A stretch of DNA of 64,000 bases from Anaerolineae bacterium (GCA_040767155.1 JAXGPC010000002.1:806863-870862); one strand, 5' to 3'; shown: positions 48,707 through 63,838, counted from the first letter of the stretch. Numbers and translations are program-made. Notes: a model not told the origin generated them from the letters alone.

Positions 48707-50049
48707 CTAGTGGGTCATTTGACAAGAATGTGTCCATTTCTCGATGATGGTTGGGCGCCGACGGATAGGGCGGTGAGTGCAAGCACCGGAGCCGCCCAGC
48801 GCGTGACGGCGCTGGCGGCTGCGCGCGCGTCGTACAGCCCGTTTCCCGCCCCACTCAAAAGGTGTCGGATGGCGGGCCCAGTGGTCCGCGGTGGCTTCCA
48901 GCCACGCGATGATCTCCTCCGGGGAGTGTGGATCCTGCCCCGCCAGCGCGCGGTGCACGATGATCCGCTGAATCGACTCACTCATGTTCAACCACGACCC
49001 GCTCAGCGGCGTATACAGCGGCATGATGCCATGGGCTACCAGCCACAGCACGAAGTCGGGGGACTTGTGTCCCGTCAGATTGTCCAGGATCAGCAGCACC
49101 CGCAAACGCGGCAGGATCTCCGGCAGCGTGAAATGGACCGTCAGGCCCTCCTGCCAGCGTTCCCACAACTGCCGTTCGTTGCTGGGCTCTGGGATACCCT
49201 CGGGCGCGGGCAGCTCGGCCAGCACGGCACTCAGCTCTTGCTGCAGCCACGGATGCAAGACCCGGTTGGGACACTGCGTCACCCCTTTGGCGCGCAGGTG
49301 TCCGTCTTGAGGATGAAACAGTGTTAGCAACTTGGCCGTCCCTGCACGCACGTACTCCGCTGGCTGCCGTGCAGCTTCCCCTGCGGGCTGCCAAGCCGTC
49401 CCCGGATAGGGGCGGGTCGGATACGGTCCAGCTTGGTCATGACACCATACCTCCAGACCTTGGCTGGCACTTTCGCGATAGGCGCGCTCGATCAAGTTTT
49501 TTTCGCCTCCGCATCGGGATCGCTCACGGTGACCACCCCGCTCTTGCGGCGCCGCTTCACCTGCCCCGTCGCGCACCACGTGCGGCTCTGCTGCCAGGTC
49601 AGCCCCGCTTCATGCAGCACCACCCAGATTGTGTAGGTGCTCACGCCCGGCAGGCCATCCGGCGCCGTGCGCAGCGCGCGCTGCAAACTGCTCAACGACC
49701 ACGTCGCCGTGCCATCCCGTTCGCGGTCGGGAACGCGCCGCGCTTCCTGCAGAATGCGCTCGCGTTGCGCCGCAGTGTAGACCGGGGCGCGCCCCCGGCC
49801 GTGGCGCGGCGCAATCGCCGCCAGCCCTTCCGCGTTGAAGCGGGCCACCAACTGTGCGACCGCATCGTTGGACTGACGCCCCGCGGCGTAGGCTGCACCT
49901 TGGTAGGTCGCGCCGTCCGCCACGGCAAGCAGTATCTTGGCTCGCGCCACGTGGCTGGCCGGCTCACTGCGCGCGCGCGCAATGCTTCCCAATACGCGGC
50001 GCTCCTCTTCCGTCAGTGTTCGCAGAGTATCCTTCCGGTGGCGGGTCAT
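48707..50049 (-). CDS. IS630 transposase, split ORFs joined by a predicted -1 frameshift (~447 aa fusion)
   Basis: OrfA 49492-50049 (RAKILL...GRAP...WSLSSL HTH). OrfB 48707-49579 with CHDQAG / LDNLTGH / WLNMSE. Slippery A7C at 49496-49503. Confidence 0.88.
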
Positions 50050-52323: not shown

Positions 52324-53478
52324 TTACTGTATCCGCTTCCGGTACGTTCGCCAGCGTTTGTAGATGGTTGCGCCCATATGTTCCGCGATCAGGGGCGTCT
52401 GCGGGTTGTCCTCGGACGTGATCGACAGGTCAATCCACTGGTAGCCCTTGGCGCGTGCGCGCTGGGCCATCGTGTCGAAGAGCAGCGCTGCGACGCCCGT
52501 GCCCCAGTACTCGGGCTTCACCAGGACGCTCTTGATAGCCAGGCACGCCGGCTTATGCCCAAGCCGTGGGCGAATACCCAGATGCCACGCCGCTGCCGCG
52601 TAGTTCCTCGGGTAACGCAGGCCGTTGACGTGGATCAGGGCCTCGTTGAGATTGGGCACACCCGGCAGGAACCCAATGGTCTCCCCATTGGCATCTGCGA
52701 AGAGGATCAGGTCCATATCAGCGATCTCGCGGAATGGGGCAACGAGCGCCTCAACGGCGCTCCGGTGCCAGCCGACGAAGTCCTCCAGATGGGCCAACGC
52801 CGCATTGAGCAGCCCGTGCAAGCGGTCGACCTCGTCGTCCCAGTGATCCAGGTCGGGTCTGCGGATGACGAAGTCCCGATGCCGCCGCACGGCCTCGGCG
52901 AGACGTGCAAGGTGCTGCAGGGCGGGCGTCTGCTCGTGGATGTCGACGGCAAGCGCAATGTTGTCGGGCCGGCCCTTGGTGAAACCCAGGTGCTCCATCA
53001 TCGGCACGTAGTAGGGTGGGGTATGGCCACAGAGGAGTGTTGGAGGGCGGTCGCGCCCCTCGAGTAGAACGCCGTAGGCATCCTCGTAGTCAAGGTTGAA
53101 CGGTCCAAAGAGCACGTCCAGGCCGTGGTCACGCGCCCAGGTGCTGGCTGCGTCGATCAGGGCCTGTGCCACTGCGGGATCATCCACATAATCAAAGAAG
53201 CCGAAGACGCACTCGTGCCGACCGTTCTGCGCATTGGTGAAGCGATCCTCTGCAGCACAAATCGTGCCGACCGGTTCGCCGTCGCGCCACGCAACGAAGA
53301 GGTCGGCGATGCCACGCTTGAAGAAGGCGCCCCGGTCGGGATCGATCGTCTTCGCCCGCTCGGGGAGTAATGGTGGTACCCAGAGCGGATCGTCCCGGAA
53401 GATGCGCCAGGGGAAGGTGAGGAACGTGTGCCGGTCGCGGGCGGTCCGGACCGGGTGGACATCGATCGCTATGGGCAC
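52324..53478 (-). CDS. YghO-like tandem GNAT acyltransferase
   Basis: FPWRIFRDDPLWVPPL, FGFFD, GPFN, HTPPYY, PNLNEAL, VKPEYWGTGV, SEDN, IYKRWRTY. Start placed at GTG 53478 (uncertain). Confidence 0.8.
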   Translation of the reverse strand: MPIAIDVHPVRTARDRHTFLTFPWRIFRDDPLWVPPLLPERAKTIDPDRGAFFKRGIADLFVAWRDGEPVGTICAAEDRFTNAQNGRHECVFGFFDYVDDPAVAQALIDAASTWARDHGLDVLFGPFNLDYEDAYGVLLEGRDRPPTLLCGHTPPYYVPMMEHLGFTKGRPDNIALAVDIHEQTPALQHLARLAEAVRRHRDFVIRRPDLDHWDDEVDRLHGLLNAALAHLEDFVGWHRSAVEALVAPFREIADMDLILFADANGETIGFLPGVPNLNEALIHVNGLRYPRNYAAAAWHLGIRPRLGHKPACLAIKSVLVKPEYWGTGVAALLFDTMAQRARAKGYQWIDLSITSEDNPQTPLIAEHMGATIYKRWRTYRKRIQ

Positions 53479-53618
53479 ACCGCCTGACTGGGTTGCGGAG
53501 CGCGGTATCTGGCAGAGGTGGCACGGTTGAGGGCCCGTGTGGCAACACCAGGCCAGACGTGGCTGGTCCGGAGTGGGCGATGGATGGGTTGGGGCTGCGG
53601 CATCGGTGTTGTGTGCAT
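53469..53618 (-). CDS. Possible 49-aa small ORF overlapping the GNAT start
   Basis: Strong RBS GGGGAGG before ATG 53618; the stop overlaps the GNAT GTG; no recognisable family. Confidence 0.3.
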   Translation of the reverse strand: MHTTPMPQPQPIHRPLRTSHVWPGVATRALNRATSARYRAPQPSQAVCP

Positions 53619-53872
53619 CGGGCCTCCCCGGTTGTGGTCTTCGCGTCGGTGGTGCACCCAGTATACGTCCAGCTTCAAGTCGCACAAGATTCTGTGGCTG
53701 CCAGCGAAGCCTGGCGCCCTCGACGCCTCAGGTCGATGAGGCAACGTGCTGGGTGCACTCGCACCGAATGGTCGAGGCGGCAGCCTAGGCAGCGACCGTT
53801 TTCGATGTAGAATGCCTGAGGCGGCAGGACGAGAGCGCCCGTCGCGCCATTCCCACACGGAGACAGACAGCC

Positions 53873-55504
53873 ATGCAGACCCTGGACCTCACGAACATCA
53901 CGACCTATCCCATCGCCCAGCGGCGCAACCTCGTGCACCTCGGTGATTTGATCTCACCCGAAGCGCCGCCGCCTGATTTTGACTCCGAGGAGTTGCCTCG
54001 CGTCGCCGATGCGGTTGTTGCGGCGCGTCGCGCAGAACGTCCCGTCGTCTGGATGATGGGGGCGCATGTGGTCAAGAGCGGGCTGTCGCGCCTGGTCATC
54101 GACCTGATGGCGCGCGGGTTCATCACGCATGTGGCGGGCAACGGCGCCGTGTCAATCCACGATGTCGAGCTCGCGCTGATCGGTGCGACCAGCGAGGATG
54201 TCGCCACGAGCCTGGAGGATGGCACCTTCGGGATGGCTGACGAGACTGGGCGCTACATGCACCAGGCTCTGCGCGAGGGTGTTCGTGACGGTCTGGGCTA
54301 TGGGGCGTCGATCGGGCGCTTCATGGATGGCCATCCCGAGTTCTTCCCGTACCGCGAGGTCTCGATCCTCTGGAACGCGTACCGGTTGGGGATTCCCGCT
54401 ACAATCCACGTGACCATCGGGACCGATATCATCCACCAACACCCGGCTGCTGACTTCACGGTGCTCGGTACGGCAAGTGGGCGTGATTTCCTCTCCTTCT
54501 GTACATCGCTGAGCGACCTTGAGGGCGGTGTATTCCTGAACTTCGGCTCCGCTGTCACCGGTCCTGAGGTCTTTCTCAAGGCGCTGACGATTGTGCGGAA
54601 TCTCGGGTACACGGTAGCACGCATCACCACGGCGAACTTCGACCTCATCTCGTTGGGATCTGACTATCACAGCAAGATCGGCTACGCGGATCCGCTCTAC
54701 TACTACCGCCCGCGTAAGAACATCGTCAACCGTCCTGCCTCGCTCGGTGGGGTGGGGTACCACATCACGGGCGATCACGTCGTCACGATCCCCAATCTCC
54801 ACCATCGCGTGGTGGAGGCGCTGGGTAGCGTTCCTGTGGCGGTTCGGCAGGCGACGGCTGCGCCGGTCAGTGGAGCCGCGCAGCGCGTGCTGGACGACCT
54901 GTTGGACAGGCATCCGGAGCTCGAGACCCTCCGCACCGATCTCGTCCGTGCCTATGCCGAGTTCGCCCGCTGCTTTCGCAGTGGAGGCACACTCTATCTC
55001 TGCGGCAACGGCGGGAGTATGGCCGATGCGCTGCACATCTCGGGCGAGCTGCTCAAGTCCTATGCGCATCCTCGGGCGCTGCCAGAATCGCTAGCCCGCG
55101 GCCTGGCGGAGCAGCCCGATGGCAAGCTCTTGCTACGCAGCCTCGAGGGGGGGCTGAGGGCCGTTGTGCTCGGCGCGAACGTCGCGCTTGCCAGTGCCGT
55201 GGCCAACGATCGGCCCGACCGCGATGTCGGGTTGGCCCAGGAGCTTGCGACACTGGCCCGACCTGGCGATGTGCTGCTTGCGATCAGCACGAGCGGCAAC
55301 GCGCGCAACGTTGCTTACGCCATGCAGGTGGCACGGGCGACCGGCGTCACAACGGTAGGCTTGACGGGCGCCGGTGGCGGTCGTCTCGCGGGCCTCGCCG
55401 ACATCGTTGTGCGCGTGCCGGCCGAGCGCACCGACCGCATCCAGGAGCTACACGTACTCTGCTACCATGCGCTCTGCGAGATGCTCGAAGTGGCGCTGTT
55501 CTGA
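53873..55504 (+). CDS. Fusion: deoxyhypusine-synthase-like (GSU2086-type) domain + GmhA-like SIS phosphosugar isomerase
   Basis: N-part MGAHVVK, NGAVSIHD, TSEDV, FGMADETG, IGTDIIHQHP, NFGSAVTGPEVFLKAL. C-part CGNGGSMADALHISGEL, GDVLLAISTSGN, GLTG, TDRIQELH. Confidence 0.85.
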   Translation: MQTLDLTNITTYPIAQRRNLVHLGDLISPEAPPPDFDSEELPRVADAVVAARRAERPVVWMMGAHVVKSGLSRLVIDLMARGFITHVAGNGAVSIHDVELALIGATSEDVATSLEDGTFGMADETGRYMHQALREGVRDGLGYGASIGRFMDGHPEFFPYREVSILWNAYRLGIPATIHVTIGTDIIHQHPAADFTVLGTASGRDFLSFCTSLSDLEGGVFLNFGSAVTGPEVFLKALTIVRNLGYTVARITTANFDLISLGSDYHSKIGYADPLYYYRPRKNIVNRPASLGGVGYHITGDHVVTIPNLHHRVVEALGSVPVAVRQATAAPVSGAAQRVLDDLLDRHPELETLRTDLVRAYAEFARCFRSGGTLYLCGNGGSMADALHISGELLKSYAHPRALPESLARGLAEQPDGKLLLRSLEGGLRAVVLGANVALASAVANDRPDRDVGLAQELATLARPGDVLLAISTSGNARNVAYAMQVARATGVTTVGLTGAGGGRLAGLADIVVRVPAERTDRIQELHVLCYHALCEMLEVALF

Positions 55505-55519
55505 ACGTTGGACGGGCAC

Positions 55520-55560
55520 GCGATCAGAATCGGGCGATCAGAATCGGGCGATCAGAATCG
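55520..55560. repeat. 14-bp perfect tandem repeat (~2.9 copies)
   Basis: GCGATCAGAATCGG x2 + GCGATCAGAATCG, intergenic inside the operon. Confidence 0.92.
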
Positions 55561-55605
55561 ACGCAGAGGGCGAACACGACGGTTCGCCCCACGGACTGAG
55601 GACCT

Positions 55606-56655
55606 ATGTGTCTTGCTGAATGCCTTTCGGCTTCGCGACTGACGGAGTTGCTCCAGCGCGCGCAGACGGCCAGGGTGGGCGTCATGGGCGATCTGGCGCT
55701 GGACGGCTACTGGACTGCCGACATGACGCGGTCGTTGCTCTCACGGGAGACGCCGCGTTTCCCGCGGCCCATCGTGAACGAGCGCTATGCTCCCGGTGCC
55801 GGCGGCAACGTCGCCCAGAACCTTAGCGCCCTGGGCGTGGCGGAGGTTCACGCCTTTTCGGTGCTGGGAGAGGACTGGCGTGGCGAGATCCTGCGGCGTG
55901 AGTTGGCGGCCCGCTCGGTCGCGGTGGCGGCCTGTCTCCGGTCGGCGCGACGCAGCACGCCGACCTATATCAAGCCGGTGCTTGTGGGGTACGAGGCACA
56001 GCAAGAGGATTCGCGCCTCGACTTCGAGAACCCTGAACCACTGGACCGGGACCTGGAGGATGCGCTGATCGCCGAGGTGGCGTCGGCAGTCGGTCAGCTC
56101 GATGCGCTCGTAGTAGCCGACCAGTTTGAGGTCAACGGCGTGGTCACCGATCGCGTCCGCGAGGCGCTGATTGCGATGGCCCAGGAACACGCCCGGACTG
56201 TTTTCGTCGTCGACTCCCGCCGGCGCATTGCGGACTTCCGAGGAATGGTGCTCAAACCTAACTGGGTCGAGGCGACCCGCGCGCTCGACCCGCAGGGCAA
56301 GCCACGAAGTGACACTCCATGCCTGGACGAGGTCGGTGTCGTGGCACGTGCCCTTTCCGAGCAGGCCCGGCGACCGGTTTGTGTGACACTTGGGGGTGCA
56401 GGGGCGTTCGTGTGGGACGGCGGGCCTGTCTTCGTACCCGCGGCGCCCGTCCGTCCACCCCTTGATCCTGTCGGTGCCGGTGATGCGTTCGTGGCTGCGC
56501 TGGCGACGGGCCTGGGCTGTGGTGCCACGCCTCGAGAGGCTGCGGCGTTCGCCAACCTTGCTGCCGCCGTGACGGTGGAGAAGCTGGGCGAGACGGGAAC
56601 GGCAACGCCGGATGAGATCCGGGCCCGCTACGCGCTCGCAGAGGCGATGCGATGA
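55606..56655 (+). CDS. PfkB-family carbohydrate kinase, HldE/RfaE kinase-domain-like
   Basis: VGVMGDLALDGY, SRETP, PGAGGNVAQNL, VVDSR, KPNWVE, DPVGAGDAF, ANLAAAVTVEKLG. Confidence 0.87.
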   Translation: MCLAECLSASRLTELLQRAQTARVGVMGDLALDGYWTADMTRSLLSRETPRFPRPIVNERYAPGAGGNVAQNLSALGVAEVHAFSVLGEDWRGEILRRELAARSVAVAACLRSARRSTPTYIKPVLVGYEAQQEDSRLDFENPEPLDRDLEDALIAEVASAVGQLDALVVADQFEVNGVVTDRVREALIAMAQEHARTVFVVDSRRRIADFRGMVLKPNWVEATRALDPQGKPRSDTPCLDEVGVVARALSEQARRPVCVTLGGAGAFVWDGGPVFVPAAPVRPPLDPVGAGDAFVAALATGLGCGATPREAAAFANLAAAVTVEKLGETGTATPDEIRARYALAEAMR

Positions 56656-57524
56656 GCGGCTTCAGGGATGCTGGCTCCCTCCTTGGTGGCCTGGAGTGGG
56701 TAGAGGTTGCCAATCCCGGGGCGCGGTTGGGTGCCGTTCGTCACGCTGTCTTCGACTTCGATGGAACCCTCTCCGTCATCCGTCGTGGGTGGGAACAGGT
56801 GATGATTCCCCTGATGGTCGAGATGATCTGCGATGGCCGTCCGGCCCCGGCGGGACTCGAAGGCGAGGTCGCCGACTACGTCGACCGCTCGACCGGCATC
56901 CTGACCATCAAGCAGATGATGTGGCTCGAGTCGGCGGTGCGGCGCTATGGGCTGGCGGCGGCGCCTCTGACGGCGCGAGCGTATAAGAAGATCTACAACG
57001 AACGGCTGCTCGGACCTGTGCGCCGGCGCCTGGCCCAGCTCGATGGCAGCCAAGAAGCGCGCGACGCGCTCGCCGTTGCCGGGGCCCGTAGCTTCGTTCA
57101 GGCGCTCGACGATCGGGGTGTTGTTCTCTACCTGGCCAGTGGCACCGACCATGGCTATGTGGTCGAGGAGGCAGAGGCGCTCGGGATTGCTTCTCACTTC
57201 GAGGGGCGGATCTACGGCGCGATGGACGACACCGAGGCCTACTCCAAGGAGCGCATCATCGCACGCATTCTGGCCGACCATGGTCTCGAAGGCGAGGCGT
57301 TGCTTGTCGTGGGCGATGGCCCTGTCGAGATCCGGCACGCCAGGGAGCACGGTGCCGTCGCCCTGGGTGTCGCAGTGGACGAGGATCGTCGTCAGGGGCT
57401 GAACCGTCGCAAGCGCGAACGGCTGCTGGCGGCGGGGGCCGATCTGATCGTGACCGATTTCCTGCACTACGGTGCGTTGGCTGAGGCACTCTGCAGCGCG
57501 GCTGTAGGGGCACATACCGACTGA
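56652..57524 (+). CDS. HAD-superfamily hydrolase
   Basis: FDFDGTLS (motif I), LASGT (II), SK (III), VGDGPVE (IV); ATGA coupling. Confidence 0.88.
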   Translation: MSGFRDAGSLLGGLEWVEVANPGARLGAVRHAVFDFDGTLSVIRRGWEQVMIPLMVEMICDGRPAPAGLEGEVADYVDRSTGILTIKQMMWLESAVRRYGLAAAPLTARAYKKIYNERLLGPVRRRLAQLDGSQEARDALAVAGARSFVQALDDRGVVLYLASGTDHGYVVEEAEALGIASHFEGRIYGAMDDTEAYSKERIIARILADHGLEGEALLVVGDGPVEIRHAREHGAVALGVAVDEDRRQGLNRRKRERLLAAGADLIVTDFLHYGALAEALCSAAVGAHTD

Positions 57525-57537
57525 AACGGGAGGAGCG

Positions 57538-59592
57538 ATGGCCACCAAGACCGTACACGTAGTCTTCAAGACACACCTCGATGTGGGATTCACCGACCTT
57601 GCGGCAAATGTCGTGAGGCAGTACTTTGAGTCGTTCATCCCGGGTGCCTTGGCCTTGGCTGAGACTATGCGCGAGAACTCGTCTGGCAGCCGCTTCGTCT
57701 GGACGACGGGCTCGTGGCTCATCTATGAGTACCTGGAGCAGGCGGGGCCAGCCGAGCGCAGACGCATGGACAAAGCGATCGCAATGGGGGATATCGCGTG
57801 GCATGCGCTGCCTTTCACCACGGCGTCCGAGGGAATGAGCGCTGACCTTTTCCGGTTCGGCCTGTCGCTCAGCCGGCGCCTCGACGCCCGGTATGGACGT
57901 AAGACGATCGCTGCCAAAATGACCGATGTGCCGGGCCACACGCGGGCGATTGTGCCACTCCTGGCGGAGGCCGGCGTGCGTTTCCTGCACATCGGCGTCA
58001 ATCCGGCCTCGTCGGCTCCGGACGTTCCCCCCGCCTTTGTGTGGCGCTCGCCTGAGGGGGCCGAGATCGTCGTGCTTTACTCGGCGGGCAGCTATGGCAC
58101 ACTGCATGTGGTTGAGGGGCTGGAAGACGTCCTCTTCCTCGCGCACACCAACGACAACCTGGGGCCACCGCCCGTCGACCACATCGTCGCGATTTTCGAG
58201 CAGATGGCGGCGCAATTCCCCGGTGCCGAGGTCCGGGCATCGACCCTTGATGCTTTTGCCCGGGCGATTTGGCCCGCGCGGGCTGCACTCCCTGTCGTCA
58301 CAGCCGAACTGGGCGACACCTGGGTCTACGGCCTGGGCTCGGATCCGCACAAGGTGTCGCAGTACCGCGAGCTCCTGCGGTTGCGTGAGCGGTGGCTGGC
58401 CGGGGGTGTCGAGCCTGAGAGCCTGGATGTGTTCACGCGGCACCTGCTTCTGATCCCGGAGCACACCTGGGGGCTCGACGAGAAGACCCATCTGGGCGAC
58501 TATGTGGCCTATGCGCCCGCAGACCTCGCGCGCGCCCGGGCGCAGGACGTTGTCGGCGAGGATGTCATTCCTCCAGAGCTGGAAGCCTTCGCCCGCTTCG
58601 TGAAGCCTGGCAACACGTACAGCCACTTCGCATCTTCGTGGCAGGAACAACGCGCCTACATCACCAGGGCCGTCGCGAGCCTCGACGCCGCGAGGCACGA
58701 CGAAGCGCAAGCGGCCCTTGATGCGCTCGTGCCCGCTGTGCCATCGCGCGAAGGTTATGCCGCGTTCGACCCGACCGCCCCCCTCGACGCCTCGGCCTAC
58801 ACGGTCGCGGTCGATCCGGCAACGGGTAGCATCGTCCGTCTCGATGACAAGGTTCGGGGCAACGCGTGGGCCACGCGCGAGCACACGATCGGGCTGTTCA
58901 GGTATGAGAGCTTCGGGCAGGAGGATTACGACCGCTGGATGCGCGACTACGCCATCAATCTCGATCTGCACGGACTTTGGGCCCATGCGGACTACGTTAA
59001 GCCAGGCATCGATGCGGTGCGCCCGCGCCCCGAGCACCGGTTCTACGCGCCCGACCTGGTCTGGGCCGGCTTCAAGAGGGACGGCGATGCGCTGGACGTG
59101 CTCCTCGAGTTGCGGATGCCCGGCGCCTGCGTGGAGGTCCTGGGGGCGCCCCGCAGAGCGACTGTTGAGTATCGCTTCCTGAGCGACCGCATCGAGGTCC
59201 GTCTCCAGTGGTTCGACAAGCAGGCGACGCGGTTACCGGAGGCGCTATGGTTCTCGTTCAATCCCGTGATCGGTGATCCGGAGGGTTGGAAGCTCGACAA
59301 GATGGGCCAGTGGGTCTCACCTCTGGAAGTCGTGCGTGGCGGCGGGCGTTTCTTACACGCCGTGCAGAGCGGTGCCCGCGTTGAGGATGAGGATGGTACG
59401 GTGTCCTTCGCCTTCGAGAGCCTGGATGCACCGCTCGTCGCCCCTGGTCTGCCGCGGCTGCTTCACGCCGACGACGTCCAGCCGCAACTCGCCTACGGGA
59501 TGCACGTGCTCCTGTACGACAACCTATGGGGGACGAACTTCCCGATGTGGTATGAAGAGGATGCCGCGTTCAGATTCGTGCTGCGTTTCTAG
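57538..59592 (+). CDS. DUF5054-like protein (GH38/GH57-type N-terminal barrel; putative glycosidase)
   Basis: VFKTHLDVGFTD, FVWTTGSW, WHALPF, MTDVPGH, ELGDTW, EHTWG, RLPEALWFSF, NLWGTNFPMW. Confidence 0.78.
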   Translation: MATKTVHVVFKTHLDVGFTDLAANVVRQYFESFIPGALALAETMRENSSGSRFVWTTGSWLIYEYLEQAGPAERRRMDKAIAMGDIAWHALPFTTASEGMSADLFRFGLSLSRRLDARYGRKTIAAKMTDVPGHTRAIVPLLAEAGVRFLHIGVNPASSAPDVPPAFVWRSPEGAEIVVLYSAGSYGTLHVVEGLEDVLFLAHTNDNLGPPPVDHIVAIFEQMAAQFPGAEVRASTLDAFARAIWPARAALPVVTAELGDTWVYGLGSDPHKVSQYRELLRLRERWLAGGVEPESLDVFTRHLLLIPEHTWGLDEKTHLGDYVAYAPADLARARAQDVVGEDVIPPELEAFARFVKPGNTYSHFASSWQEQRAYITRAVASLDAARHDEAQAALDALVPAVPSREGYAAFDPTAPLDASAYTVAVDPATGSIVRLDDKVRGNAWATREHTIGLFRYESFGQEDYDRWMRDYAINLDLHGLWAHADYVKPGIDAVRPRPEHRFYAPDLVWAGFKRDGDALDVLLELRMPGACVEVLGAPRRATVEYRFLSDRIEVRLQWFDKQATRLPEALWFSFNPVIGDPEGWKLDKMGQWVSPLEVVRGGGRFLHAVQSGARVEDEDGTVSFAFESLDAPLVAPGLPRLLHADDVQPQLAYGMHVLLYDNLWGTNFPMWYEEDAAFRFVLRF

Positions 59593-60602
59593 ACGCGCTT
59601 GAGCGCACTGAAGCGGACGAGCTGGCCCTGGGCCTCATCATACAGCGCTAGCCCCAGGCACTTCAGGCTGCTCACCAGTGTGAGCGGTTTCACCCTCTGT
59701 AGTGCGGGGATGTCATCGTACGCAGCCTGCAGGTTGTAGTTGGGGATCGTCGCGCGCAGATGGTGGATGTGGTGCAGGCCAATGTCGCCCGTGAACCATT
59801 GCAGGACACCGGGTAGCTTGTAGTACGAGCTACCCTCGATGGCTGCACGCGTGCGGTCCCAGGACTCGTTCCTTGCCCAGTATACGCCTTCGAACTGGTG
59901 CTGAACGTAGAAGAGCCAGATACCGAGCATCGCCGCGATCAGGATCACGGGCATTTGGATGAGCAAATACGTCCGCAGCCCCATGGTGCTCCAGGCGATG
60001 ACCAGGATCGCGAGCAGCGCCACGTTGGTCAGAGCAACGCTGATATGCTCTCTACGCCCAGCACCCTTGCGTGCAAACCGCTGGCTGAGCACGAAGCTGA
60101 AGAGCGGACCGAGTCCGAACATGACCAAGGGGTGGCGGAAGGCGCGGTAACCCCAACGCTTCCACCAGGGGGCCGCACGATACTCCTCAACTGTCATCGT
60201 ATAGACGTTACCTGATCCGCGTCGATCGAGGTTGCCCACCGTGGTATGGTGACGGGCGTGCGAGAGCCGCCACGGCTCGTAAGGTGTGAACGTGAGTATC
60301 CCGGTGATCGTGCCCAAAATCTGGTTGGCTCGTCTGGTGGCGAAGAAGGATCCGTGACAGCAGTCGTGGAAGATGATGAAGGTGCGGATGACAAACCCCG
60401 CAGCCACGAAGGCGAGCGCAAGGGTCAGGACGTACGGTAGGTTCGACTGCATCAGCGCGAGCATCGCGGCCCAGAGCAGCAGGTAGGGCCCAATGCTTGT
60501 CACGATCTGCCAGATCGCTTTCTTCCGATCGGGCCTCGCATATGCTGCGAGTGTTCGTACCCAGGTGGACCCGGTTGTATCCTGTGCCTCACCGGCTGTC
60601 AT
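59589..60602 (-). CDS. Membrane fatty acid desaturase (Bacillus Des-like)
   Basis: Three His boxes HDCCH, HARHH, HHIHH; WLFYVQHQFE; IPNYNL. Start ATG 60602 (uncertain). Confidence 0.9.
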   Translation of the reverse strand: MTAGEAQDTTGSTWVRTLAAYARPDRKKAIWQIVTSIGPYLLLWAAMLALMQSNLPYVLTLALAFVAAGFVIRTFIIFHDCCHGSFFATRRANQILGTITGILTFTPYEPWRLSHARHHTTVGNLDRRGSGNVYTMTVEEYRAAPWWKRWGYRAFRHPLVMFGLGPLFSFVLSQRFARKGAGRREHISVALTNVALLAILVIAWSTMGLRTYLLIQMPVILIAAMLGIWLFYVQHQFEGVYWARNESWDRTRAAIEGSSYYKLPGVLQWFTGDIGLHHIHHLRATIPNYNLQAAYDDIPALQRVKPLTLVSSLKCLGLALYDEAQGQLVRFSALKRV

Positions 60603-60621
60603 AGTACCCGTCTGCGGTCTC

Positions 60622-61536
60622 CTACTCTGCCCAACGCGCCGTGTCAACCAACCTCTTCAGGCACGTGTGAAACTCCTCCTGCAACCGGCCAGCAAAATCG
60701 AGTTCGGTAGCCTTGGGCCCCAAGATGACGCCCAGGGCTACAGTTGCCGGCCCGTGAGGGGGATCATTCCAGGTGAGACGGGGCTTGCCCCATGTGGGGC
60801 TTGTCCGTCCAGGCTGAGACTCATAGAGCTCGTACGTTCCATCCACGGGATGGGCAAGCTCCGCCGTTACCTGGAAGGCCGCTGGAGAACAGCCATCCTG
60901 CGACCAAGCCATCACACGGGCGACCAGAGCGTGCGTCAGGATCCGCAAACGGTCCTGGAGCACGGTATCACGTTCTACGATGTTGGCCAACGCTCTGGGG
61001 TCGTTGACTGGCGCAAGCAGCTTGGGGTCATCCACGGCTTTCGTGTCAGCAGGCGGGGCGTCGGTCACCTGCATCGGCGTGAGCAAAATTCTCCGGACTT
61101 CCCAGCGGTGGGGGACCTTGGGATTCACCTGAACCTTGCAGGCCCACAGGCAGGGGCGTTCCGGTTCCGGCAGGGCGATCTCGGCTTCGGCACGCCAGAG
61201 ATCCTTTACGTCAGCGGTCCAGTCCTTGGCAGGTTGCCGGCGGGGTATGAGGCGTCCCAGCCCATACGCACCGGCGGCCAGTGCTGTAGCAATGCTGGCC
61301 CAGGCGACATCAGAGAGGAAACCGTTGTCGCGCGTTTCCTCGTCCGCCGGTACGAGTCCGGTTGTTGGAGGATCTTCGTCGTGCGTTGCCGATGCCACTT
61401 CGCGCTGCGCAAGTGGGTGCGTTGTGACGCTGGACGCCAGGAGGTCGCTGGGCGCTGTGAGCGTCCAGGCCATTTCCAGAATGACGACGAGTGCAGTTAG
61501 GGTACCACGAAGCAAATGGTGCGGGCGGTCCATCAT
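60622..61536 (-). CDS. Hypothetical membrane protein
   Basis: Long ORF in the co-directional run, GGAGG before ATGATG, two hydrophobic segments; no family recognised. Confidence 0.6.
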   Translation of the reverse strand: MMDRPHHLLRGTLTALVVILEMAWTLTAPSDLLASSVTTHPLAQREVASATHDEDPPTTGLVPADEETRDNGFLSDVAWASIATALAAGAYGLGRLIPRRQPAKDWTADVKDLWRAEAEIALPEPERPCLWACKVQVNPKVPHRWEVRRILLTPMQVTDAPPADTKAVDDPKLLAPVNDPRALANIVERDTVLQDRLRILTHALVARVMAWSQDGCSPAAFQVTAELAHPVDGTYELYESQPGRTSPTWGKPRLTWNDPPHGPATVALGVILGPKATELDFAGRLQEEFHTCLKRLVDTARWAE

Positions 61537-62421: not shown

Positions 62422-62587
62422 AGTTCCCTCCTGCCCAAGGGACTGACGGAGTGCAAACGATCGTTGGGTGTGCAGTGTCGGTGTGGCAATGAACGATGGG
62501 GACAGTTCCTTCTAACCTTAGAATAGCACAGCGTCAGTCTCATGTCAAATTAGCCGAGGTCGTCGCCATGCCACACCACCACGCGTG

Positions 62588-62616
62588 TTGTGTGCACCGT
62601 GTGACCGTGGTATAGT
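62588..62616 (+). promoter_or_regulatory. Putative promoter for GH130-xylA
   Basis: TTGTGT-17 nt-TATAGT with a TG extension (TGGTATAGT). Confidence 0.5.
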
Positions 62617-62653
62617 CGCAGTGGAAATCGGCGCGACCAAAGGAGTGACGCCT

Positions 62654-63838
62654 ATGCCACGACCGGCACCTTCGGCAGTCCTGCAGCGGCTCCGGGCGGA
62701 GCACGAAGCACTCATCACCCGGCCCAACCGGGTCGATCGGAACTGGAGCAACGGACTCTTCGAGCGCTACGAAAACCCAATCCTCACTGCGGCTCACACG
62801 CCCCTCGACTGGCGCTATGACTTCGACCCTACGACCAATCCCTATATGATGGAACGGATGGGCATCAACGGTGTCTTCAACGCCGGGGCGATGGCCTGGA
62901 ATGGGAAGATCGTGCTGGTCTGCCGCGTTGAGGGCTACGACCGCAAGTCGTTTTTCGCCGTTGCTGAGAGCACGAGCGGTGTCGACGGATTCCGGTTCTG
63001 GGATCGTCCCCTGGTGATGCCCGAGACCGAGAACCCCGACGTCAACGTCTACGACATGCGACTTACGGAGCACGAGGACGGCTGGATCTATGGCGTCTTC
63101 TGCACAGAGCGCAAGGACCCCGTCGCGCCGCCCGGCGACATGAGCAGTGCTGTGGCCCAGGCTGGCATCGCGCGGACGCACGACTTGGTTGTCTGGGAGC
63201 GGCTCGATGACCTGGTCACGTCCTCGCCGCAGCAGCGCAACGTCGTCCTGCACCCGGAGTTTGTGCATGAGAAGTACGCGTTCTACACGCGGCCCCAGGA
63301 CGATTTCATCCAGGCGGGGAGTGGCGGCGGCATCGCGTTTGGACTCGCGGATGACATCGAGCATGCCGTCGTTTTCGAGGAGACTGTCATCGATCCCCGG
63401 GCCTATCACACGATCAAGGAGCTCAAGAACGGCGCCGGCGCAACCCCGATCAAGACGCCCGAGGGGTGGCTGCATATCGCGCACGGCGTTCGCGCATGCG
63501 CCGCTGGCCTGCGCTATGTGCTCTATGCCTTCTTGTGCGATCTGGACGACCCTGCCAGGGTGCTCTATCGTCCGGGGGGGTACCTGATGGCGCCAGTTGG
63601 GGACGAGCGCACCGGCGACGTCTCCAACGTCCTCTTCTGCAACGGTGCAGCCGCCTTACCCGACGGCACGCTCTTCGTTTACTACGCCTCGTCCGACACG
63701 CGGATGCACGTCGCGACGACGACGATCGACAGAATGCTGGATTATGTGAGGAATACGCCGCCCGACGGCGGGCGCTCAGCTACCTCCGTTGCCCAGCGTC
63801 TCGCGCTCATCGAGCGCAACTGCGCGCTCATATCGTGA
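62654..63838 (+). CDS. GH130 4-O-beta-D-mannosyl-D-glucose phosphorylase-like
   Basis: [78 protein letters not shown] 62654 behind AAGGAG. Confidence 0.92.

Follow-up and report, generated by a model that had tools for sequence, protein, structure and literature searches.

A GSU2086-family domain fused to a GmhA-like isomerase in an Anaerolineae bacterium: a candidate heptose-phosphate epimerase within a putative salvage cassette

The window considered here is a 64,000-nucleotide stretch of DNA from an Anaerolineae bacterium (GCA_040767155.1, JAXGPC010000002.1:806863-870862), and the gene of interest within it is an open reading frame (ORF) at 53873..55504 on the plus strand that encodes a 543-residue fusion of a GSU2086-family domain with a GmhA-like SIS domain. 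The ORF starts with ATG, is free of internal stops and has a GGAG 10 nucleotides 5′ of its start. The N-terminal domain (residues 1-317; 53873..54823, plus strand), hereafter N, adopts a predicted fold resembling deoxyhypusine synthase (DHS) and the C-terminal domain of AgrE, and is a predicted heptose-phosphate C6 epimerase; it is joined to the SIS domain (54875..55504, plus strand) by a linker rich in Ala, Pro and Val at residues 320-334 (54830..54874, plus strand; VPVAVRQATAAPVSG). An earlier, sequence-only reading of the window had described one continuous 543-residue ORF with such a linker, and both are confirmed in a single frame. On the same strand follow a 349-residue HldA-like PfkB kinase devoid of an adenylyltransferase domain (55606..56655) and a 290-residue capped HAD phosphatase with a DFDGT motif, not of the GmhB type (56652..57524), whose gene overlaps the kinase stop by 4 nucleotides. 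The fusion, kinase and phosphatase are collectively referred to as the cassette.

The fusion is both real and recurrent. The two domains are present in all of the best 120 homologues out of 7,857 with E ≤ 0.001 (7,999 candidates scored, restricted to lengths of 298-951 residues), at 508-605 residues and 61-100% identity, the first of these being the query protein itself, and the gap between the domains spans 17-68 residues with a median of 23. The junction is bridged by contigs from three runs of three studies, two of DNA (X2, 53700-55015; X3, 54355-55033), each a possible source of the assembly itself, and one an RNA library (X15, 54616-54927), whose contigs cover parts of the cassette and cannot demonstrate expression or a single transcript. 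Together, the junction-spanning contigs and the two-domain homologues rule out an artefact of chimerism or frameshift. The runs containing the stretch derive from anaerobic digester, sludge and wastewater. Among 84 N-containing ORFs, 43 are fusions of N to SIS, with single instances of HAD fused to N and of N fused to PfkB. All 43 come from Chloroflexota- or Bathyarchaeia-type records (one labelled Bacteroidota) and occupy one part of a quick 118-row tree (6 duplicate or partial rows omitted), on which the fusion state changes 6 times, some of these changes arising from ORFs cut at contig ends (L028, L034). The recurrence anticipated by the sequence-only reading is thereby borne out, and several independent origins of the fusion are unsupported.

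The SIS domain bears the features of a phosphoheptose isomerase. In GmhA, the motifs GNGGS, HxxxE, ND, STSG and QExH...H serve in substrate and zinc binding; the fusion carries GNGGS (378), HxxGE (388), AND (444), STSGN (472), IQExH (523) and His532, each kept in 117-120 of the 120 homologues. Pfam SIS_2 matches this part at 58.6 bits, and the best PDB sequence matches of the fusion are phosphoheptose isomerases (E 2e-26). The score of 119.5 bits against the gmhA model TIGR00441 falls below the cut-off of 209.45, the match being split by an insert of about 25 residues. The kinase scores 158.6 bits against TIGR02198 (cut-off 345), and the best PDB match of its family profile is HldA (4e84, E 8e-32), with the next at 5e-19. 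For the phosphatase, profile and fold searches return capped HADs of a generic kind, in which beta-phosphoglucomutase appears at no better than ranks 41 and 45, and they speak neither for nor against a mutase role.

Residues 4-311 match NF052581, the "GSU2086 family", with 399 bits (cut-off 250) over the whole model (positions 2-300 of 301), a family already named in NCBIfam under a model name that assigns no function. A structure model of N built from 92 sequences has a predicted local distance difference test score of 96.5 and resembles DHS (Foldseek to 7cmc, E 3e-8, TM 0.59; 8put, Z 19.6, root-mean-square deviation (rmsd) 3.9, 268 residues aligned), which bears out the DHS-like fold proposed from the sequence. 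The accompanying description as an uncharacterised DHS-like family needs amendment, given the existing NCBIfam name and since the modelled fold is as near to the cyclodeaminase domain of AgrE/ArgZ (6lrf, Z 19.9, rmsd 3.2, 213 aligned), with 3c2q at Z 18.7 and the next folds, sirtuins and SIS folds, at Z 11.3 or less. An hhalign comparison of profiles gives the cyclodeaminase domain a probability of 97.6 (E 3e-12, 24% identity) and DHS one of 95.5 (E 1.4e-8, 16% identity, homology over residues 22-224), so that N appears nearer to the former. An N-x-x-x-x-x-H-D-x-E stretch is common to N and the cyclodeaminase, and its H96, D97 and E99 are among the invariant residues of N, the others being H65, E108, D185, E232, K236, R242, D257, R279-P280 and R287. 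The AgrE/ArgZ C-domain and TIGR00300 proteins (PF21570; 6lrf, 6juy, 3c2q) thus represent the closest relatives in profile and fold, yet N lacks their N-terminal part of about 150 residues, lies in a sugar context, is scored by TIGR00300 at only 14.4 bits (cut-off 410.8) and is not always accompanied by lar genes.

The Lys of the E-x-x-S-W-G-K motif is catalytic in DHS. In a global profile alignment with eight DHS-type proteins, weak around this very region, the motif aligns to K282-N283-I284-V285-N286-R287-P288, such that the catalytic Lys is absent and its position is held by P288 (Pro in 88 of 92 N sequences), V-N-R replaces SWG, and K282 stands where DHS has Glu (Lys in 69 of 92). Structural identity to DHS is 11-14%. 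Glycine-rich loops together with D185, D257 and D/H301 of N align to conserved DHS positions in the sequence comparison. A true DHS is ruled out by the missing Lys and by 13 bits against the DHS model NF002630 (cut-off 364). Of the two HMM matches that had been expected, SIS_2 is found and Pfam DS (PF01916) is not, the fusion protein having no match to it at E ≤ 1; nor is there a match to the HldD model TIGR02197 at E ≤ 1, and all that an Atlas search brought up was unnamed clusters and weak labels of ArgZ/DS. The replacement of the catalytic Lys agrees with the earlier suggestion of a carbohydrate rather than a polyamine substrate, and the basic residues K236, R242, R279, R287 and K282, if placed in the pocket as the alignment implies, would suit a phosphorylated one.

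The genomic company of N points to sugar phosphates. Related loci (the best 80 of 213) are mostly from Chloroflexota, with others from Bathyarchaeia and Bacillota, and in them N is accompanied by PfkB (64 loci), HAD (58) and SIS (47). Where the flanks extend for 3 kb or more in both directions, as they do in 39, the numbers are 32, 32 and 20. The kinase and phosphatase are therefore steadier partners of N than SIS, and the Rosetta-stone link drawn from the fusion holds for a sugar phosphate. Neighbours among 81 loci, in clusters named from 1-5 representatives each, include ROK proteins (16), GH38 (10), sugar ABC transporter parts (6-10) and GH130 (4), along with GH4 and LacI. Among 69 adjacent genes in 50 loci, 34 were scanned singly, yielding one glycosyltransferase, no nucleoside triphosphate transferase and nine without a match, and the remainder were named via cluster representatives.

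The connection to heptose is provided by diderm bacteria. In Geobacter sulfurreducens, a transposon-sequencing study lists GSU2086 between hldE and gmhA, with fitness values on electrodes of -3.1 for hldE, -3.2 for GSU2086 and -3.7 for gmhA, and its authors argue that the transposon reads through and is non-polar (PMC5585712). In the diderm loci of Planctomycetota and Omnitrophota, N adjoins full hldE, gmhB, gmhA, and lpxL-like or lpxK genes. Where both N and HldD are required to exceed their family cut-offs, 151 Planctomycetota genomes hold N in 87, HldD in 29 and both in 4, against 16.7 expected (Fisher p 1e-7), and 41 Omnitrophota genomes hold N in 7, HldD in 23 and both in none (p 0.0014), counts which treat genomes as independent though kin are not. 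Among the 135 Planctomycetota with RfaE2, 81 have N only, 25 HldD only, 4 both and 25 neither; with split and sub-cut-off matches counted, these become 82, 30, 5 and 18. In the 16 without RfaE2, N occurs in 2 and HldD in none.

The exclusion is also seen at a single position within an operon. The order lpxK-lpxL-hldD-hldE in one planctomycete (G008) is matched by lpxK-lpxL-N-hldE in three others (G077, G060 and G139), with flanks of 65-74% nucleotide identity and an alignment gap at the slot, and G008 and G077 are sisters on a RecA tree with a support of 95. An hldD directly 5′ of hldE occurs in four further genomes (G137, G005, G056, G074). Weak N matches lie beside hldD in G052, G119, G088 and G071, of which the one scanned, that of G119, is a DHS-type gene and not N. 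In G088 and G119, members of one planctomycete clade (loci L158 and L159), a DHS-type gene stands directly 5′ of hldD and near recA, and the G119 copy exceeds the cut-off for 1,9-bis(guanidino)-5-aza-nonane synthase. On the RecA tree, which covers 130 of the 151 Planctomycetota genomes (21 omitted for want of RecA coordinates or not fetched), six supported independent pairs differ in HldD, with N opposite in 4-5 and the same in approximately none.

From the fold and the exclusion of HldD, N is probably a heptose C6 epimerase. HldD (RfaD/GmhD, TIGR02197) would be its counterpart in the proposed epimerization at C6 by internal redox, in the slot before hldE and in a nearly exclusive distribution, but HldD is of the short-chain dehydrogenase/reductase fold, unrelated to the DHS-like fold of N. 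The two would also differ in substrate. The host genome (94.6% complete) has no RfaE2 over the cut-off (best 56 bits against 181.5), no HldD over the cut-off and no GT9 (PF01075) at E ≤ 0.001. Searched by tblastn with LpxK, LpxL and GmhB, it yields nothing at E ≤ 1e-8, and only 5 of 50 cassette genomes have RfaE2 at E < 1e-50. Hosts free of RfaE2 are probably unable to make ADP-heptose, and the absence of RfaE2 from the host and from 45 of the 50 cassette genomes makes free heptose phosphate the likely substrate, rather than ADP-heptose. In the 118-row tree, the N of an Omnitrophota operon with the order N-hldA-rfaE2 (L119) is placed within clostridial copies from nucleotide-free settings. Because copies of both settings are interleaved, a shared reaction would imply a shared substrate, either heptose 7-phosphate, 1,7-bisphosphate or 1-phosphate. 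A route through the 7-phosphate alone requires no 1-kinase and phosphatase, and that both are so regularly present speaks for the bisphosphate, while the fusion of N to SIS speaks for the 7-phosphate; the choice of bisphosphate over 7-phosphate is evenly poised. As to direction, the recurrence of ROK kinases, glycosidases and sugar transporters favours salvage, which is the likelier course provided that N is a C6 epimerase.

Combined, these considerations suggest a reading in which the N-domain of the fusion performs the task of HldD on a free heptose phosphate and the cassette serves here in heptose salvage, a proposal whose chances, taken as a whole, fall slightly short of even. Judging from the neighbours, glycans of dead cells, for example lipopolysaccharide (LPS) cores, would be the source of L-glycero-D-manno-heptose, which glycosidases, transporters and a ROK kinase would set free and convert to the 7-phosphate. 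The kinase, as its closest relative HldA suggests, would add the 1-phosphate and thereby lock the ring. N, to judge from its fold and the HldD exclusion, would then oxidize the C6 hydroxyl by means of a tightly bound cofactor of the nicotinamide adenine dinucleotide (NAD) type and re-reduce it from the other face to give the D,D-heptose. The HAD would plausibly remove the 1-phosphate, which is the weakest step, and the SIS domain, whose GmhA motifs are seen and whose activity is presumed from them, would supply the pentose phosphate pathway with sedoheptulose 7-phosphate by isomerizing D,D-heptose 7-phosphate, the GmhA reaction in reverse. In diderms, the N family would serve biosynthesis, at a point before the HldE adenylyltransferase.

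The cassette thus recalls the ADP-L-glycero-beta-D-manno-heptose pathway (GmhA, HldA/HldE, GmhB, HldC, HldD) in the co-occurrence of a GmhA-like isomerase with an HldA-like kinase, but differs by the lack of an adenylyltransferase, by a capped HAD in place of GmhB and N in place of HldD, by its catabolic neighbours, and by hosts that would mostly lack an LPS heptosyltransferase, as tested for the host genome of the window only. It differs likewise from GSU2086 of G. sulfurreducens, in that N is here fused to SIS, has a capped HAD and a kinase free of adenylyltransferase beside it, and belongs to a genome in which RfaE2 and GT9 are both lacking. As proposed here, N works like HldD without membership of the HldD family and has the DHS fold without being a DHS. 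The slot swap, the argument from the absence of RfaE2 for a non-nucleotide substrate and the counter-examples to obligate nickel use described below are contributed by this analysis.

Several observations weigh against this interpretation. N and HldD occur together in 4 genomes and neither is present in 18-25 of the 135 RfaE2-positive Planctomycetota; the tree-corrected sign test, consistent in direction, is not significant (median p 0.125); the clean slot swap is one case among 20 regions fetched; and most of the genomes searched are incomplete metagenome-assembled genomes. SIS is missing in 19 of the 39 well-flanked loci, a count of the locus only in which distant gmhA genes were not searched. 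Both the kinase and the HAD fall below curated cut-offs, and the structural neighbours of the HAD are uninformative as to which phosphate is removed. On the catabolic side, no ROK gene is found among the ORFs scanned beside the cassette of the window, a heptosidase activity of GH38 was not found in a literature search, and many neighbours are of the mannose type (GH38, GH2 mannosidase, GH130 and AGE epimerase).

The identity of the cofactor is a separate matter, for a nickel-pincer dinucleotide in place of NAD would be compatible with the same epimerase. This variant, which is doubtful, draws on the nearer relation of N to the cyclodeaminase domain and their common H-D-x-E stretch, on the naming of TIGR00300 in NCBIfam as nickel-pincer dependent, and on an NPAD-dependent cyclodeaminase cited in PMC13524815. 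LarC is enriched with N in Planctomycetota (84 of 87 against 44 of 64 without N) and in the class of the host (38 of 51 against 69 of 150), and the host genome has larC and larE, albeit its LarA homologues account for these lar genes. A second LarA-like gene of the host lies at G000:C10:34826-35308 and matches in two pieces. On the other side, of the 51 genomes in the class that carry N (completeness 92% or more), 13 have no larC; a genome in one contig (G416, 99% complete) carries two intact N copies and no match to larC or larE; LarC is present in 28 of the 50 cassette genomes and in one of seven archaeal ones (none of five with PF01969); larE is also absent in most larC-negative Bacillota (4 of 5) and Chloroflexota (4 of 5); Omnitrophota show no LarC enrichment (5 of 7 against 23 of 34) at an E cut-off near their scores; and tree-corrected LarC pairs give p 0.5-1. 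An obligate dependence on the nickel-pincer cofactor is unsupported in this clade in view of G416 and the larC-negative carriers, which make NAD the likelier cofactor here, with a nickel-using subset possible.

Among the alternatives to a C6 epimerase of salvage, the first is that N carries out another step of the heptose pathway, such as a different oxidation or epimerization, metabolite repair or regulation, with HldD being excluded only through a different inner core. The four genomes with both genes, those RfaE2-positive genomes with neither and the non-significant tree-corrected test would all fit, as would a Solidesulfovibrio plasmid (NZ_CP026539.1, L082) on which N lies beside NeuB-family and radical SAM genes. 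There, N has a permuted adenylyltransferase-kinase HldE on one side and a SIS gene on the other, with the NeuB-family synthase before and three radical SAM genes after. The presence of hldD in exactly the slot of N in a sister genome speaks against another step, and so does the fold: the DHS fold is used for internal hydride shuttling, as HldD does. This alternative appears unlikely.

A slightly smaller chance is given to a biosynthetic cassette, in which sedoheptulose 7-phosphate would be converted to D,D-heptose 7-phosphate and epimerized, and the kinase and HAD would furnish L,D-heptose 1-phosphate or free heptose for an unrecognized nucleotidyltransferase and, finally, a surface glycan or glycolipid. 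The order of the fused N and SIS, kinase and HAD does parallel the GmhA-HldA-GmhB pathway, with the HAD in the place of GmhB, the five cassette genomes with RfaE2 would be accommodated, and a DegT aminotransferase adjoins three loci and a glycosyltransferase one. However, the HAD is of the capped type and unrelated to GmhB, the neighbours are mainly hydrolases, importers and kinases, and the host genome has neither GT9 nor RfaE2 over the cut-off, HddC-type guanylyltransferases not having been searched.

It is improbable that Chloroflexota, Bacillota and Bathyarchaeia have adapted the cassette to D-mannose or to some other sugar phosphate of manno configuration. The mannose-type neighbours named above, together with an acetyl esterase and the GH130 gene in the window (62585-63838), would suit such a role, but C6 of a hexose is not chiral, and it is GmhA and HldA, both specific for heptose, to which SIS and kinase are most closely related. 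The tree also mixes N copies from the two contexts, and of 5 cassette genomes tested for a separate ManA, 3 have one over the cut-off, the host giving a weak match and G004 none. Finally, a polyamine (aminobutyl) transferase akin to DHS or homospermidine synthase, fused to SIS by chance, has the fold match in its favour and is highly improbable given the absence of the catalytic Lys motif, the score far below the DHS cut-off, the heptose context throughout, and the separate true DHS-like genes of N-bearing Planctomycetota.

If N is indeed the epimerase proposed, the hole in the pathway would be filled for the 81 of 135 RfaE2-positive Planctomycetota with N and without HldD, the DHS fold would gain sugar-epimerase chemistry, the heptose pathway would be reordered so that epimerization precedes activation and L,D-heptose phosphates become intermediates, and a catabolic route for LPS heptose would be indicated. 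In its widest and most tentative form, possible rather than probable, the proposal would make the GSU2086 family another class of heptose C6 epimerase, unrelated to HldD, with the DHS fold and with the 1,7-bisphosphate as its substrate ahead of nucleotide activation. The family would supply L,D-heptose to LPS synthesis in most Planctomycetota and in Geobacter and, reversed together with kinase, HAD and GmhA, would permit digester and sediment dwellers (Anaerolineae, Clostridia, Bathyarchaeia) to scavenge the heptose of dead Gram-negative cells. In the open-access literature, no paper was found that proposes a heptose epimerase role for the GSU2086 family or that describes a catabolic route for LPS heptose.

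Further features surround the cassette. Beginning 13 nucleotides past the HAD gene and probably co-transcribed with the cassette is a gene for a 684-residue DUF5054/GH38-like glycosidase (57538..59592, plus strand), which matches GH38 weakly in its N-terminal part (E 0.008), may be a heptosidase or a mannosidase, and has close relatives in no more than 3 of the 80 related loci. Three tandem 14-nucleotide copies (55520..55561, no strand assigned) separate the fusion from the kinase, and nearby, at 55560-55595, contigs from other runs break off or accumulate, which suggests that the unit is a repeat occurring elsewhere in genomes. A promoter scan gave one site (53786-53813) against 0.7 expected, i.e., chance level. 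The cassette is flanked by a divergent GNAT-family protein gene (52324-53685, minus strand) and a convergent fatty-acid desaturase gene (59589-60647, minus strand). Farther upstream, a two-ORF transposase with a helix-turn-helix ORF and a DDE_3 ORF, presumably IS630-like, occupies 48707-50049 on the minus strand between FGGY kinase and Gfo/Idh/MocA genes.

Elsewhere, three Flexilinea loci (L067, L069, L070) contain two N copies facing each other, with an N-SIS fusion, a second SIS and a ROK gene on one strand and HAD-N-PfkB on the other, the second N copy being about 42% identical to that of the window. A longer variant of N, with a match of about 1,060-1,080 nucleotides compared with about 900, is found in six genomes (G009, G097, G102, G108, G145, G169) and is carried by two of the four that have both N and HldD. 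A 411-residue protein of G194 (L124:1444-2676) matches the N profile weakly (E 3e-7), matches nothing in Pfam at 1e-6 or in NCBIfam at 1e-25, and possibly represents another unnamed family of the DHS fold.

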